A DNA stretch of 51,907 nucleotides from a virus. Positions within the stretch are counted from its first letter, which is position 1, and each line of letters starts with the position of its first letter. A program made the position numbers and the translations under genes. The stretch lies in the IMG/VR virus record IMGVR_UViG_3300045988_151376; one strand, 5' to 3'. The notes beneath the pieces were generated by a model. The model was not told the DNA's origin, ran no database searches, and saw nothing but the letters and a program-made list of their open reading frames with translations. Shown piece after piece: positions 2,635-34,936 of this stretch.

Positions 2635-2722
2635 AAAAAAAGCCGCTTCCAACGGTCGGCGGCTTTCTTGCGCCTTGAGATCAGTCGGGTTTCGACGCCC
2701 GTCCCCGTCGCTTTCACGGGGC
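2635..2722 (-). ncRNA. Candidate ~90-nt terminated leader RNA or small RNA (copy A)
   Basis: Runs from the predicted transcription start just downstream of the promoter to the hairpin agccgc-N12-gcggct plus U-run. Contains the hairpin ccccg-tgaaagcga-cgggg. Duplicated at about 5576..5660. Confidence 0.4.
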
Positions 2723-2728
2723 AGGGAT

Positions 2729-2757
2729 ATTCTGCCCGATCTTAGGCGCTGTGTCAA
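2729..2757 (-). promoter_or_regulatory. Sigma70-type promoter (TTGACA-17-CAGAAT), leader copy A
   Basis: Minus strand: TTGACA (2752..2757), 17-nt spacer, CAGAAT (2729..2734). Confidence 0.6.
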
Positions 2758-2790: not shown

Positions 2791-3615
2791 ATGCCTGAAG
2801 TCGTTGCCTCAAATGCTGATATTGAAGTCTTGGATAACTGCAGTCACAAGAATGGGCATCGTTACTGGCTAGCGAAGGAGTTCATGCTACGTTTGGGATA
2901 TAGCTCTTGGGACCAGTTTAGGAGGGTCATTAACAGGGCTATTGCTTCATGTGCAAAGTTAGAACTGGACGTCTCTGAGGCATTTGAACAGATCCGTAGC
3001 GACGATGGCCGACTGGTTGACTACAAGCTGAACCGGTTCGCTTGCTTTCTGATTGCGACTTACGCTAACGACAAAAAGCCTGAAGTGCAACGCATCAAGA
3101 TAGCCCTGTCTGCCTTTGCTGAGACAGTTATCCAAGCCGCAATCGACTCGAACAGCGTCCTCCGTATAGAGACGCGAGAAGATCTAAAGTCTGCGGAAAA
3201 GCTCTTGAGCTCAGCCGCAAAGGAAGCCGGAGTTAACTCAGGCGAGTTTGGGCTATTTAAAGACGCAGGATTCCGAGGCATGTACAACATGTCTCTCGCG
3301 GATCTCCGGGCCCATAAGGGCGTGATTGGTAACGGACGTAAGTCTCCAGTTTTATACGACTTCATGGGCATAACGGAACTGGCGGGCAACTTGTTCCGAG
3401 ATACGCAAACCGCGGAGCGCATTCGCAGTAAAAATGTTCGTGGGCTTAGAGAAGCCGCAGATTCTGCACGAACGGTTGGTAAAGAAGTGCGCGACATGAT
3501 GATCCGAAATAGCGGTGTCAAGCCGGAAGACTTACCCGTTGAGGAAGACGTCAAGAAAGTGAAGACTCGTCTCAAGAAGGCCAGTCGAACCATGATCAAA
3601 CATGACAAAAATTGA
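2791..3615 (+). CDS. dinD: DNA-damage-inducible protein D (DinD)-like protein
   Basis: Collinear similarity, from memory, to E. coli DinD (HMGSTELAANLFRATQTEEKL versus FMGITELAGNLFRDTQTAERI here). RBS ggagaaacag before the ATG. Opposite strand to its neighbours. Confidence 0.75.
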   Translation: MPEVVASNADIEVLDNCSHKNGHRYWLAKEFMLRLGYSSWDQFRRVINRAIASCAKLELDVSEAFEQIRSDDGRLVDYKLNRFACFLIATYANDKKPEVQRIKIALSAFAETVIQAAIDSNSVLRIETREDLKSAEKLLSSAAKEAGVNSGEFGLFKDAGFRGMYNMSLADLRAHKGVIGNGRKSPVLYDFMGITELAGNLFRDTQTAERIRSKNVRGLREAADSARTVGKEVRDMMIRNSGVKPEDLPVEEDVKKVKTRLKKASRTMIKHDKN

Positions 3616-3801
3616 ACGCATTTTGGCCAATCACGTCATTTTGATGCCGTCTGCCTAAGCGCGCATCCACGTGGGAGGCGGTTTTCACTGCTTATCCTAG
3701 AAGGCAAGCGGCATCAAGATGAAGCCCCTGGGCGGGGCTGAAATCCAAATTAAGTTTGGGGTTTATGATGATTTTTTACTCTTCATTCTGGCGGCCCCTT
3801 T

Positions 3802-4576: not shown

Positions 4577-5398
4577 TTACGCGGTTAAGCGCTTGGGCTG
4601 TTGCGAAGCCCAGTGTTGGTAGCACGAGAGATCTTTCACCGAGTATCCCTGCTTGGCTAGAGCATCTTCCATAAAGCCAAGTCCCAGATCATTAACGGCT
4701 TCCCAAAAATGAGCTGCGAGAGGGGATTTCACGCGGCGCAAGAGCGCTAAAAAGAGATTCAGATCGTCTCGAAAGAGATATCGCCAGTAATAGATAAAGA
4801 CAACGATTTTCTCGGCCATAGCCTCGTCGATCACGATTGACCCTTCGGGAATTGCCGGAGCCGAAAGCTGCGGCTTAAGTGTGCATGTCTCGATGAGTGC
4901 GAGTGCTGCTTTCATCTGATCGTGTCTTAGGTCTTTGTAGCTCGCGATCTTGAAGTAATCGTAAAGAGCGTTGTAGACCGTCTGGTAGTGAACCGATGAG
5001 TTCTTTGCGCGTGACTTGATAGCTTTGCGGATCTCGTACTGCTCTGTAGTCGTGATCAGCGCGGACTGGTCTGTTTCGTAGCGTCCCGTGCGGCGAATCG
5101 CCGGCAGAACTTCCGACGTTACCCAGCGCTTGAAGCGTTTTGCGCTCTCCAGCTTGGAGCCGAAGATCAGTGCGTAGAGGCCGGACTCGGTGACGCAGTT
5201 GACGGTTTGCGTGCGGCCCATGCTGTCGGTGATCTCGGCCTTGACGATGTCTTCAGGGTCGACAAGATCGGCAATCGCCTTACGCGGATTGCTGTGTGAG
5301 AGCGCCTTGCAGATGTCGGTTGCGACAAAAAGAGGCGCTTCAGGCGTGCCAAGGGTGCGGACGGAAGAATTCTCAAAAGAGAAAGTGAGTGCAGACAT
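4577..5398 (-). CDS. BRO-N-domain antirepressor with the same shared C-terminal domain (paralogue 3)
   Basis: N-terminus FENSSVRTLGTPEAPLFVATDICKALSHSNPRKAI...SGLYALIFGSKLESAKRFKRWVTSEVLPAIRRTG fits BRO-N. The C-terminus aligns with paralogues 2 and 4 (VKSPLAAHFWEAV...GYSVKDLSCYQHW). SD aaggaga. Confidence 0.85.
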   Translation of the reverse strand: MSALTFSFENSSVRTLGTPEAPLFVATDICKALSHSNPRKAIADLVDPEDIVKAEITDSMGRTQTVNCVTESGLYALIFGSKLESAKRFKRWVTSEVLPAIRRTGRYETDQSALITTTEQYEIRKAIKSRAKNSSVHYQTVYNALYDYFKIASYKDLRHDQMKAALALIETCTLKPQLSAPAIPEGSIVIDEAMAEKIVVFIYYWRYLFRDDLNLFLALLRRVKSPLAAHFWEAVNDLGLGFMEDALAKQGYSVKDLSCYQHWASQQPKRLTA

Positions 5399-5695
5399 TT
5401 AGGTCTCCTTAGATGCGTTGAATGCCGCTCGCACGGTTCCAATCGTGGCGGGCGGGCTTGTAGGTTTGGAACGCCGCTCTAAGGAAACGGCCCCTCGAAG
5501 AGGGTCCTACAAGCCCACCCATAAAGGAGGCTTGTCGATGACGTAACTGCCGGTTACGCCATCCTGCACATCAAATAAAAAGCCGCTTCCAACGGTCGGC
5601 GGCTTTATTGTGCGCCTTAGAGTCGGGGTTCCAATCCCGTCCCCGTCGCTTTCACGGGGCACGAACATTGTGCCCGATCTTAGGCGCTGTGTCAA
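5399..5695 (-). promoter_or_regulatory. Structured 5' leader of antirepressor paralogue 3 (copy B), same architecture as 2450..2757
   Basis: e1 CUCUAAGG (plus 5615..5622), terminator (5576..5606), e2 CCUUAGAG (plus 5477..5484), e3 UCUAAGGAG containing the SD (plus 5405..5413). Confidence 0.6.
5667..5695 (-). promoter_or_regulatory. Sigma70-type promoter (TTGACA-17-CACAAT), leader copy B
   Basis: Minus strand: TTGACA (5690..5695), 17-nt spacer, CACAAT (5667..5672). Confidence 0.6.
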
Positions 5696-5740
5696 AATGG
5701 AAAAGGAGCTTGCGACAAACGTCGCGAGGGGAGTCTTGCC

Positions 5741-6307
5741 ATGAATAATCTTTATCGATCTCTTATTTCGTTGGCTACCGTGTTCCCGTTGAGCATCACG
5801 TTCAGCTATTTGTACTCGGATTGGCTGCTGAGCCTGTTGCCTGATGTGGTCTCTCATTTCTTAGAAGCTCACCTGAACGCGCAGCTGGTATTCGTTTTGT
5901 GCGCAGTGGTGTTCAACTATGCTCTTGGGCAAATAATCCTGATCTACCTCGGGTGGGTCGCGACGAAGTTGGATCGACTCCCCGTGAAGCTAACAAGCGT
6001 CAAAGAGCTGGGCACAGATAGCCTGTTGGCCTATCTGCCATATGTTCTTCCTTTGTTCATGATCCAGGGAGATCGCCAAGAGCCGACGGGGTGGTTGCTT
6101 GGCGGGATCTTGTTGTTGATCCTCTCGTGGGCGTCAATGACGATTGCTTTTTCCCCATTGCTGCGAATTTGTGGAATGCGCTTTTTTGAGGCCACGCGAC
6201 CAGACGGCACTACTGTGACGGTGTTGATCAAAAATCCCAGCCTTAGGCCGTTGCGATTGACGGAAGCTTCAAGTATTTCGGATAACTGCTTGTATGGATT
6301 GAAATGA
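5741..6307 (+). CDS. Four-TM membrane protein, first gene of an AT-rich two-gene island (KwaA-like architecture)
   Basis: Four hydrophobic segments (SLISLATVFPLSITF, LVFVLCAVVFNYALGQIILIYLGWV, LLAYLPYVLPLFMI, WLLGGILLLILSWASMTIAF) and a soluble tail. The stop overlaps the next start (ATGATG). Opposite strand to its neighbours. Confidence 0.7.
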   Translation: MNNLYRSLISLATVFPLSITFSYLYSDWLLSLLPDVVSHFLEAHLNAQLVFVLCAVVFNYALGQIILIYLGWVATKLDRLPVKLTSVKELGTDSLLAYLPYVLPLFMIQGDRQEPTGWLLGGILLLILSWASMTIAFSPLLRICGMRFFEATRPDGTTVTVLIKNPSLRPLRLTEASSISDNCLYGLK

Positions 6308-11555: not shown

Positions 11556-11760
11556 TGTGAACTCCTTTACATATTTGATTAATCGCCCCTTTTGAGAGGG
11601 CGGCCAAGCGCTCAAAACCGTGTAAAGGCGGCGGGCATATTTCCCTTTCGGGTTTTTTATTAGCCTCACGCTCAGCCATGAGCTGAGCTATCCGCGCCCA
11701 TAGGGCTACAGATACAAAAAAATCCGCATGACTGACAGGGCGGAATCCGCTTTACAGGTG
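11556..11760 (-). promoter_or_regulatory. 5' leader of paralogue 4 with its own anti-SD/SD pair
   Basis: Minus RNA: e2 CCUUUACA (plus 11621..11628) is complementary to UGUAAAGG at the SD (plus 11564..11571). An upstream UGUAAAG (plus 11750..11756) precedes a weak hairpin with U7. Confidence 0.45.
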
Positions 11761-32862: not shown

Positions 32863-34936
32863 CGCTATCGACAAACTTGTTATCTCGCTAGGCTTTGACA
32901 GCGTCGAGCTCAACGAAGGACTGCGCAAGGCCTCCGGCGCGATCGCCGACTTCGGCAAGCGCGTGGAGCTCGACGGCCGCGCGCTGGACCGCCTCGCGGC
33001 GACGGCTTCGAAGACGGGCCTGATGATGGGCGGCGTCTCGGACGAGGTGGCTGAGCGCGTCATGTCGATCGGCACGGCCGGACAAAAGACCTCGCTTGTC
33101 ATGGGCCGGGCGATGGACGGCATCTCCGCTCGTGTCGGCAAGGTTGGGGCGCTTCTGAAGACCGCCCTGGGGCCCGTGCTCGCAGTCTTCGCGGGCGGGA
33201 AGATCTTCAGCGGCCTCTCGCAGATGGGCGAGAGCCTCGACGTGCTGAGCGAGCGCACGGGCGTCGCCGTGGACAAAATCGACGCATGGGCCAAGGCGAA
33301 CCGGGACGCAGGTGGCTCTGAGGAGGCTTTCAAGTCCGCGCTCGAGAACTGGACGGTCGAGAAGGGCCGCTCTGCAGACGACTTCTTCCGCATGGGTGAG
33401 GCCGTCAAGGGCATGAGCCAGCAGCAGGCCGCCTACTTTATGCGGGCGATGGGCCTGAGCCAAGACGCCGCGGCGGTCTTCACGAAGTTCACGGACAAGG
33501 CGTCGTCCGCCGCCAAGGCCTACGAAGGCATGGCGATGACCAGCGAGCAGGCCAAGGCCGCGCGCGAGATGAACATCCGCTGGCGCCAGTTCACCGATCA
33601 GGCGCAGGCCCTCGGGAATGTGCTTGGGGTGACGGTACTCCCGGTCGTGAACCGCGTTCTCAAGGTGCTCGGCGACGGCGTGGCCTTCCTGAGGGAGCAC
33701 AGCAAGGGCGTGAAGCTGATCCTCGCCGGGCTGGGGGCGGTGCTCGCCGTCACTTACGGCCGGTCGATCATCCAGGCGATCGCGACAACCTCGACTTTCT
33801 TCAAGACGCTGAAGGCCGGTCAAGGCGTCATGGCGGCGCTCAATGCGACGATGCTCGCGAATCCCGTCGCGGCGCTCGTGGCAGGCGTCCTCGCGCTCTG
33901 CCTTGCCCTCGACGACCTGCTCGCCTTCCTTGACGGCGGGAACTCCCTTCTCGGGAAGTTCCTGAGCTTCATCGGCTTTTCTGATAAGCAGATCGACGCC
34001 TTCCGAAAGAGCCTGCTGAACTTCTTGCAAGTGCTCGGCGGCATCCCGGAGAAGATCGTCGGGGCGATCCAGTCCGCTTGGGACGGCGTCAAGGATTTCG
34101 GCAAGTGGGTCGGCGGCCTCTTTGACGGCGTCGACTTTTCGGGGGTCGGCAAGGCCCTTTCGGTGGGGATCCTGCTGCCGCTGAAGGTGATCGGGAAAGG
34201 CATCGTCGCGGTATTCGACGGCCTGGAGGTCTTCTTTACCGATCTGCCAACGAAGATAGCTAAGGGCATCCCCAAGGCGCTATCTTCGCTTTCCGGGCTT
34301 TCTGATGAAGTCGGCGCCGCCTTTATCAGGGCCTTCCACTCGGCCATCGATTGGGCGAAGAAGGCGTTTAAGGCGCTTGTTGGTTTGATCGGCAAGTGGG
34401 TCGCGAATGCACTCAATATCGGCGGCAAAGTGAAAGGGGTCGTAAGCGGAGCTGTTGATAGCGTTACGGACGGCGTGAAAAACGCCATGGGCGGTATCGC
34501 GGACATTTTAGGCTTCGACGCAAAAGGAAAGCCGAAAGAGGCATCAGCTCCGGCGCAGGACCCCAGCGGGAAGCCTGCGCCGGATGGTGGAGCCGCGGAC
34601 GGCATCAAGGACCGTGTGAAGGGCGTCTTTGGCGGCATCGCGAGCTTCTTCAGGGGTGGCGACGAAGCCAAGGCGCCCGCGGCGGATGCGTGGGACTGGG
34701 GCCGATACGCCTCTGCGCCGACTCAGGCGGCGGCGGGGGCTATCGCGGCATCGCAGGCGAAGACCTCGCAGGCTCCGGCCGTGGCGAATCAAATGGAAAT
34801 GAACGTCGTGAACAACATCCAGACGAACGGCAGTCCGGAAGACGTGGGCAAGGCCGTCGGCGGGGCGATGGACAACGCCCTTAGCCGCCGCAACAGGATG
34901 CTGGTCGCGGCGCAGTCCGGCGTGATTTCAAAGTGA
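32855..34936 (+). CDS. Tape measure protein
   Basis: 693 aa, Ala/Gly-rich with hydrophobic central segments, after the chaperone pair. Confidence 0.9.
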   Translation: MANAIDKLVISLGFDSVELNEGLRKASGAIADFGKRVELDGRALDRLAATASKTGLMMGGVSDEVAERVMSIGTAGQKTSLVMGRAMDGISARVGKVGALLKTALGPVLAVFAGGKIFSGLSQMGESLDVLSERTGVAVDKIDAWAKANRDAGGSEEAFKSALENWTVEKGRSADDFFRMGEAVKGMSQQQAAYFMRAMGLSQDAAAVFTKFTDKASSAAKAYEGMAMTSEQAKAAREMNIRWRQFTDQAQALGNVLGVTVLPVVNRVLKVLGDGVAFLREHSKGVKLILAGLGAVLAVTYGRSIIQAIATTSTFFKTLKAGQGVMAALNATMLANPVAALVAGVLALCLALDDLLAFLDGGNSLLGKFLSFIGFSDKQIDAFRKSLLNFLQVLGGIPEKIVGAIQSAWDGVKDFGKWVGGLFDGVDFSGVGKALSVGILLPLKVIGKGIVAVFDGLEVFFTDLPTKIAKGIPKALSSLSGLSDEVGAAFIRAFHSAIDWAKKAFKALVGLIGKWVANALNIGGKVKGVVSGAVDSVTDGVKNAMGGIADILGFDAKGKPKEASAPAQDPSGKPAPDGGAADGIKDRVKGVFGGIASFFRGGDEAKAPAADAWDWGRYASAPTQAAAGAIAASQAKTSQAPAVANQMEMNVVNNIQTNGSPEDVGKAVGGAMDNALSRRNRMLVAAQSGVISK

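Follow-up and report, generated by a model that had tools for sequence, protein, structure and literature searches.

Diverged IsrK- and C4-type RNA modules precede two antirepressor genes in a human-gut phage lineage

The antirepressor genes of Gifsy-1 and of P1-like phages lie behind leaders built on small RNAs, and here we describe two leaders of this kind in a viral DNA of 51,907 nucleotides (nt), IMG/VR record IMGVR_UViG_3300045988_151376. We refer to this whole stretch as the window; the element under study is a unit at positions 2635-2757, repeated at 5576-5695, that precedes two antirepressor-like genes, ant1 and ant2. The closest described counterpart is the small RNA IsrK of Gifsy-1. 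From the IsrK promoter a longer, read-through mRNA for AnrP, an antirepressor, is made as well; this anrP mRNA is translationally silent, the short IsrK supplied in trans activates it more than 100-fold, and IsrK is closely followed downstream by STnc1160, a processed RNA that is stable (Hershko-Shalev et al., 2016; PMC4825925). The same authors likened the system to seqA, CI and seqC of phage P4, with IsrK as a structural homologue of the seqA RNA, and the experimental support for Hfq binding and for trans-activation of antirepressor translation comes from Gifsy-1 alone (PMC4825925). The immI region of P1 and P7 comprises the c4 antisense RNA, the sites a1/b1 and a2/b2, and the genes icd and ant (Citron and Schuster, 1990, as cited in PMC8201110). 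In P4 immunity (CI with seqA, seqB and seqC), by its description, a processed small RNA pairs with target copies upstream and downstream of itself in its own transcript, and the window modules are laid out in the same way.

The window units as diverged relatives of IsrK and C4

The duplicated unit is a diverged member of the IsrK (or c4-a1b1) plus C4 kind; it represents neither a new kind of system nor a new principle. In both copies the parts follow one another on the minus strand in the order promoter, terminated three-hairpin RNA carrying sites a1 and b1, spacer hairpin, C4 RNA carrying sites b' and a', hairpin displaying a2, and finally b2, which overlaps the Shine-Dalgarno (SD) sequence ahead of the ant ATG; all features below lie on this strand unless stated otherwise. 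This arrangement has the marks of an isrK unit, namely three hairpins of which the last is an intrinsic terminator, a promoter of its own (promoter scan, folds and structure comparison), and a position directly upstream of an antirepressor gene and a C4-type RNA to which the unit is complementary. It also has the marks of a P1-type immI region, with a1/b1 upstream and a2/b2 downstream of c4 and all of these sites complementary to c4.

A sequence-only reading of this DNA had called for an Rfam scan, and the outcome differs between the parts of the leader. Over the whole window, the C4 model (RF01695, gathering score 45 bits) gives two full-length matches, at 2495-2578 in copy 1 (54.2 bits; fold z-score -3.4; 3' end ACCA) and at 5444-5526 in copy 2 (53.0 bits; fold z-score -6.3), each between the flagged unit and its ant start codon; the unit itself stays below the isrK cut-off. 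That reading had placed the unit just upstream of ant, which is incorrect because a C4 RNA gene lies between the two in each copy. It had rightly seen the unit as part of an RNA control of antirepressor genes that recalls P1 c4, and had taken the sequences to be unrelated to P1 c4; this last view must be revised, since a c4 homologue above the gathering score is the next element downstream and the unit aligns with isrK. With permissive thresholds and searches of 501 nt, both copies align to the full length of the isrK model (RF01394; positions 1-77 of 77), at 33.7 bits for copy 1 (E = 1.2e-5) and 32.5 bits for copy 2 (E = 2.5e-5).

Three reference phages were run through Rfam for comparison. 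In Gifsy-1 (NC_010392), isrK lies at 34240-34316 (79 bits) and overlaps c4-a1b1 at 34277-34329 (48.1 bits), with C4 at 34131-34214 (69 bits) and then the antirepressor-like STM2616. Klebsiella phage MK416010 has isrK (80 bits), C4 (66 bits) and then an anti-repressor coding sequence, and the P1-like phage D6 has isrK with its terminator (59 bits), c4-a1b1 (21.7 bits), C4 (76 bits) and then icd and the antirepressor. In both Gifsy-1 and D6, isrK is thus the a1/b1 element just upstream of C4.

The structure of the short RNA was taken from folds of 2722-2634 and 5660-5574. For copy 1 we predict an RNA of ~88 nt at 2634-2722, on the evidence of the fold, the isrK alignment and a lineage covariance model. 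It comprises hairpin 1 (CCCCG/CGGGG, 2721-2703), hairpin 2 (stem 2701-2698 with 2689-2686) and a terminator stem AGCCGC/GCGGCU at 2664-2641 followed by a U-run at 2641-2635. The copy 2 RNA, of a predicted ~86 nt, occupies 5574-5660 with its terminator at 5604-5581 and a U-run ending at 5577. Hairpin 1 and the AGCCGC/GCGGCU stem with its U-run appear in both folds; the small hairpin 2 is present in the minimum free energy (MFE) structure of copy 2, and the MFE structure of copy 1 has a weaker alternative at this place. The conserved hairpin and intrinsic terminator noticed from the letters alone are therefore recovered by folding, and the terminated RNA of ~90 nt proposed for each unit holds as a prediction, at ~88 nt.

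A search for the repeat in relatives and a covariance model had also been suggested, and both support the structure. We found 62 copies of the unit, with 32 distinct sequences, including the two in the window. The covariance model, built from nine lineage variants and the IsrK sequences of Gifsy-1, the Klebsiella phage and D6, finds exactly two units in the window, at 88 and 85.5 bits. Among 26 distinct aligned sequences, 99.7% of the cells in the three hairpins pair and five pairs have changed on both sides, a level that none of 500 shuffles reached, while slid controls pair in 38-50% of cells; this alignment was fitted to the covariance model and so leans towards the structure. Compensatory changes occur among the relatives in hairpin 1 and in the terminator, and some of the additional units have other hairpin-1 stems, GCACCG/CGGUGC or GUCAGCGC/GCGCUGAC. 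We rejected the possibility that the unit codes for protein, as the small open reading frames (ORFs) across it are incompatible with cassette-like a/b swaps and with covariation of the RNA type.

Each unit has a single promoter candidate. In copy 1 this is TTGACA (2757-2752), a 17-nt spacer and CAGAAT (2734-2729), spanning 2729-2757 with a predicted start near G2722; in copy 2 the scan gives TTGACA-17-CACAAT at 5667-5695. These minus-strand boxes are those that the sequence-only reading had picked out, and the promoter scan confirms them as the sole sigma70-like sites in each 600-nt region (2300-2900 for copy 1), each with 10 of 12 matches. No second promoter-like site was found between terminator and C4 by the scan of these 600-nt regions, in either copy. 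A 19-nt spacer segment, CAGCGCCTAAGATCGGGCA (2733-2751 and 5671-5689), is identical in the two copies and occurs at just these two places in 51.9 kb with up to three mismatches allowed (chance expectation 0). Its form in relatives is GCGCC-(variable)-TCGGG; the b1 cassette of the RNA itself (CCCGA-b1-GGCGC) looks similar when read as its reverse complement. A candidate co-variation between the variable part of the spacer and the cognate b1 was rejected (5.9 cognate versus 6.1 non-cognate, with 18,031 of 20,000 permutations at least as high). The spacer may be an operator or the relic of an inverted duplication.

The duplication extends further than the ~125 bp first described. The repeat is real, with same-strand blocks at 2683-2760 and 5621-5698 (78 nt, 90% identity) and at 2626-2673 and 5566-5613 (48 nt, 88%). 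In a pairwise alignment, the similarity sets in just 5' of the -35 box, and as far as the terminator the copies are almost identical apart from four short divergent patches, located around the -10 box and start, in the hairpin-2 loop, in the linker and ahead of the terminator. It does not stop at the terminator, however; a more diverged homology of ~190 nt continues as far as the ant start codon, so that the duplicated module measures ~320 nt. The conserved ends are promoter, hairpin 1 and terminator, and the divergent centres are specificity sites, which explains the earlier remark, upheld by the repeat search and the alignment, that the ends of the direct repeats are similar and their centres diverge.

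Considered part by part, the window modules follow the Gifsy-1 IsrK-STnc1160-(orf45)-anrP region: a sigma70 promoter, a terminated three-hairpin RNA of ~80 nt, a C4-type RNA and an antirepressor gene, with the middle of the short RNA complementary to ~30 nt within the downstream C4 region. The two systems differ in several respects. Differences in the hairpin-1 and terminator sequences keep the isrK score of the window units at only ~33 bits; terminator and C4 are separated by ~50 nt that include an extra variable hairpin, compared with ~25 nt in Gifsy-1; the orf45-like ORF is not conserved in the window lineage; a helix between the SD and an upstream complement (anti-SD) is predicted here, whereas we saw no such complement on reading the Gifsy-1 leader; one phage carries two orthogonal copies; and the host is a human-gut bacterium and not an enterobacterium. 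With P1/P7 immI the window shares a C4 above the Rfam threshold and an antirepressor as the controlled gene, and with D6 an isrK-type terminated unit in front of C4. Unlike immI, the window units are not recognised by the c4-a1b1 model, and b2 is the ribosome-binding site (RBS) of ant itself, whereas in P1 and D6 it is the RBS of icd, with ant translationally coupled.

Matched address sites in the short RNA, C4 and the ant leader

The specificity sites of copy 1 can be followed through the whole module. Site a1 (GUCGAAA, 2690-2696) lies in the hairpin-2 loop; it reads in the sense of a2 and can pair with a'. Site b1 (GAUCUCAAGG, 2673-2682) lies in the single-stranded linker, has the sense of the ant RBS and can pair over 10 Watson-Crick nt with the C4 loop. 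Their partners in C4 are b' (CCUUGAGAUC, 2537-2528), in the loop of C4 hairpin 2, and a' (UUUCGAC, 2524-2518), at the C4 3' junction. Both a1 and b1 then recur in the same sense downstream of C4, as a2 (GUCGAAA, 2488-2494) in a hairpin loop between C4 and the RBS, and as b2 (UCUCAAGG, 2465-2458) overlapping the SD, with the ant1 ATG at 2449-2447. Copy 2 has the same layout with different letters: a1 UUGGAAC (5634-5628), b1 CUCUAAGG (5622-5615), b' CCUUAGAG (5484-5477) and a' GUUCCAA (5472-5466) within C4, a2 UUGGAAC (5442-5436) in a hairpin loop, and b2 UCUAAGGA (5413-5406) overlapping the SD, with the ant2 ATG at 5398-5396. The loop and junction of C4 are therefore complementary to the downstream translation start in both copies, over 8 nt for b':b2 and 7 nt for a':a2, and the words that a unit shares with its ant leader in the same sense measure 8+8 nt for copy 1 and 10+7 nt for copy 2. 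The corresponding Gifsy-1 sites, as we read them, are a1 AUUGGCGU, a' ACGCCAA and a2 AUUGGCGU, with b1 UCACCG, b' CGGUGA and b2 UCACCGGAGG at the anrP RBS, and Gifsy-1 hairpin 2 (CGGGAUUGGCGUCCCG) is identical to hairpin 2 of many relatives of the window units.

Across the lineage the three sets of sites change together. The matched sets include b UCUCAAGG with a GUCGAAA (window copy 1), b CUCUAAGG with a UUGGAAC (window copy 2), b CAUACGG with a UUGGCGU (contig L001), b CAACUGG with a GUGAGAA (L005) and b CAUACGG with a UUGGUCU (L079); by eye, the module sequences contain no fewer than 13 types of b and 6 of a. As a measure of co-variation we took the longest uninterrupted Watson-Crick run between two sites and averaged it over 15 modules from gut viromes and metagenomes, each with a different C4 core; the C4 hairpin-2 loop was set by fixed offsets, as MFE-based location is unsuited to three palindromic loops. 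Cognate and non-cognate runs were 8.4 and 4.6 for b1:b', 8.2 and 4.6 for b2:b', 6.8 and 4.9 for a1:a', and 7.0 and 5.6 for a2:a'; in each of the four comparisons none of 20,000 permutations reached the observed total. Whole-segment duplex energies between unit and C4 also separate the two groups, at -36.0 kcal/mol for cognate and -24.1 kcal/mol for non-cognate pairs. For RBS:C4 these energies are too noisy, because a2 and b2 lie ~30 nt apart, and the site-wise run was used instead.

The two window copies are mutually orthogonal. Unit 1 with its own C4 gives -37.4 kcal/mol and unit 2 with its own C4 -32.3 kcal/mol, while the crossed pairs give -15.9 and -24.2 kcal/mol. In P1/P7 heteroimmunity, specificity is set by a few bases, and the same is true of the window modules. 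Some relatives depart from this pattern. L059 has two modules 2.2 kb apart (1383-1471 and 3583-3671) with the same b specificity, and the a1 loop of one of them, GUGAGAA, no longer fits its a'; in L044, a2 carries a point change (GUCUAAA). Such deviants look like recent recombinants or mutants.

Possible roles of the short RNA

We propose that each unit is the 5' element of a switch of the P1-immI or Gifsy-1-isrK type and that the short RNA is a target mimic, a decoy or activator, for C4; we consider this reading likely. The sigma70-type promoter would fire, and most transcripts would end at the intrinsic terminator to give an ~88-nt three-hairpin RNA that displays a1 in its hairpin-2 loop and b1 in its linker. 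Some transcripts would read through and carry C4, the hairpin displaying a2 and the ant RBS (b2), and RNase P would free C4 from this precursor, with a cut expected 5' of GGGAGAGG. The b' loop and a' 3' junction of C4 could then pair either with a2/b2, which would block ant translation, or with a1/b1; an abundant short RNA would titrate or re-fold C4 and ant translation would be freed. As a1/b1 would bind C4 in place of a2/b2, the short RNA would mimic the region where ant translation is initiated. Each copy would control just its own antirepressor, because the copies share promoter, hairpin 1 and terminator and differ in their a/b 'address codes'. In this scheme termination, read-through and the RNase P step are borrowed from homologous systems; C4 is probably excised from a longer precursor by RNase P, since it ends in ACCA or GCCA after a tRNA-like closing stem. 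That the short RNA would activate is likewise carried over from the IsrK experiments (PMC4825925).

Predicted folds of the leader add two features. In the MFE structure of the read-through leader, the a1-b1 region pairs in cis with b'-a' over ~25-30 bp (z-scores -5.8 and -4.7), which resembles helix b-I of the IsrK 'structure A'. When the 150 nt past the terminator are folded, the MFE structure consists of the C4 shape and the a2 hairpin, closed by a helix between anti-SD and SD (z-scores -4.9 and -4.8). The copy 1 anti-SD, GUCUCCUU (2576-2583), lies just 5' of C4 and is complementary to the ant1 SD AAGGAGAC (2461-2454); that of copy 2, GCCUCCUU (5524-5531, partner 5403-5410), has one A.C mismatch with the SD AAGGAGAC. 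By eye, the two strands of this helix co-vary at one position among relatives, as GUCUCC/GGAGAC, GCCUCC/GGAGGC (L072 and L060) and GACUCC/GGAGUC (L039). An ORF starts from an AUG in the 5' end of C4 in both copies, at 2446-2574 in copy 1 (42 codons, with an ATGA overlap with ant1) and at 5411-5524 in copy 2 (37 codons, ending in the b2 site). We rejected it as a conserved orf45-like leader ORF: the ATG is present in just 12 of 18 distinct modules and missing from the other 6, and the stop position wanders.

Several observations weigh against the proposed decoy role. Neither unit reaches the isrK gathering score of 50 (33.7 and 32.5 bits), and the c4-a1b1 model (RF03163, gathering score 46.7) gives only 10.3 bits (E = 9.4) in copy 2 and no match in copy 1 at permissive thresholds. 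The start site, the termination efficiency and the processing of C4 are predictions, which weakens the proposal. The published IsrK mechanism runs through orf45, which overlaps C4 and is translationally coupled to anrP, and such an ORF is not conserved here. The predicted anti-SD:SD helix could keep ant silent independently of C4, so that a net activation of ant by the short RNA is put forward tentatively. There is also an exception to the co-variation: in the second module of L014 (10125-10208 and ~300 nt downstream), b1 (CUCAUGG) and b2 (CUCAUGGAG) match and the a sites match, but the C4 hairpin region has no complementary b'. This module may be decaying or re-targeted.

The short RNA might instead be a by-product without a role in trans, with a1/b1 acting inside the nascent or precursor transcript as in P1 and P4; C4 from an earlier read-through event would bind newly made a1/b1 and enforce termination or guide folding or RNase P processing, thereby limiting both itself and ant. 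Such a cis-only leader would suit the position of b1, just 6-8 nt upstream of the terminator stem, the cis pairing of a1-b1 with b'-a' in the read-through fold, and the lack of a separate C4 promoter in the promoter scan, and the IsrK authors consider that STnc1160 could modulate the IsrK terminator in the manner of P4 CI with seqA/seqC (PMC4825925). We nevertheless judge it unlikely. The more than 100-fold activation by IsrK occurs in trans, point mutants separate cis from trans effects, and co-expression of STnc1160 left IsrK toxicity unrelieved (PMC4825925); moreover, the window terminator, a strong hairpin of canonical type followed by a U7 run, should work without C4.

The analogy with c4 and sar drawn in the sequence-only reading implied that the unit is an independent antisense repressor of ant. 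The promoter-to-terminator architecture upstream of ant would agree with this, and P22 sar is indeed a small RNA that controls ant; sar, however, is made from the strand opposite the ant leader and is fully complementary to that leader. The window unit shares the strand of ant and so cannot give a cis-antisense RNA of the sar type, no Watson-Crick run between its core and the ant leader or RBS exceeds 4-5 nt, the variable sites are copies and not complements of a2/b2 and are complementary to C4, and a true C4 is present next door. Both the antisense role and the sar parallel consequently fall away, and we regard an antisense repressor as scarcely credible. Only slightly less improbable, in our estimation, is that the repeat is just a duplicated promoter/operator with an attenuator, in which the conserved sequence binds a protein and the RNA structure has no regulatory role. 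The GCGCC...TCGGG flanks of the spacer are conserved across loci, the spacer is identical in the window copies, and promoters shuffle freely against specificity sites, with 44 distinct promoter/b1 combinations and no correlation between them, all of which an operator could accommodate; it would not account for the a and b sites past the start site changing together in all three places, for compensatory changes within the hairpin-1 and terminator stems, or for the isrK match.

Extending the decoy proposal to the whole lineage, one may picture the IsrK-like RNA, C4 and RBS as a modular address code that recombines freely with promoters, with two to three orthogonal modules per phage, in which each antirepressor is freed by its own decoy, the anti-SD adds a third state, and stand-alone cassettes of unit plus C4, such as those of L010 and L037, could serve as an RNA-only immunity against incoming phages with the same code. 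We offer this broader picture tentatively and consider it doubtful.

What the modules do provide is an extension of the c4/IsrK antirepressor switch, studied in enterobacterial phages, to a lineage of uncultured human-gut phages. With a standard Rfam scan, C4 would be annotated and its partner RNA missed, and the modules are worth annotating. To our knowledge, the role of the upstream a1/b1 was never clearly assigned in P1 and has been tested for IsrK alone. Variants with matched a and b sites, among them the two orthogonal modules of a single genome, amount to ready-made compensatory 'mutants', and such a natural set of specificity variants could be used to help settle whether upstream a1/b1 acts as a decoy or activator or as a cis attenuator.

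Distribution of the module and its surroundings

Exact and degenerate pattern scans place the unit in 15 IMG/VR viral contigs, in 43 metagenome stretches, of which those with descriptive record names come from the human gut, and in one contig of a metagenome-assembled genome. Long metagenome contigs with the module include SCPO01001238.1 (397 kb) and OKVI01000021.1 (210 kb). The degenerate pattern contributed just one true extra locus among GC-rich chance matches. The lineage covariance model finds three units in the related contig L010 and two each in L014, L059 and L069, and two to three orthogonal modules per phage thus appear to be usual in the lineage. No nucleotide match to either module was found among 50,697 GenBank phage records (blastn, word size 11). 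Among the phages listed, all relatives of terminase and of the ant1 protein are distant, with a terminase identity of at most 57%, and the hosts of these phages are mostly Proteobacteria. A scan of genome contigs did not identify the host: it returned a single 3.8-kb contig of a metagenome-assembled genome, labelled Collinsella and suspected to be mis-binned.

Two relatives carry a shortened form of the module. In L037 (~2106-2811) and L010 (11589-11671, minus strand), unit and C4 are complete, the similarity breaks off precisely behind the 3' CCA of C4, and a2, b2 and ant are absent; the ORF that follows each cassette encodes a PemK/MazF-like toxin (PF02452, E = 2.3e-14 for L037). These may be stand-alone C4 cassettes or recombination junctions.

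In the window, ant1 (1553-2449) encodes an antirepressor-like protein with Phage_pRha and ORF6C domains, and ant2 (4577-5398) one with Bro-N and ORF6C domains. A third antirepressor-like gene at 730-1476 (Phage_pRha, E = 2e-26) lies directly downstream of ant1; this gene has no unit or C4 of its own and is probably co-transcribed with ant1. Divergent plus-strand genes at 2791-3615 and 5741-6307 start 34 and 46 nt upstream of the respective -35 boxes, so the intergenic regions probably contain back-to-back promoters. The first of these genes matches phrog_8036 and, weakly, Bro-N; for the second, domain and family searches gave no family match. Elsewhere in the window, at 11594-11677 on the minus strand, the Rfam scan finds a full-length sRNA-Xcc1 (RF02221) at 70.6 bits against a gathering score of 53, which is unrelated to the antirepressor switch.

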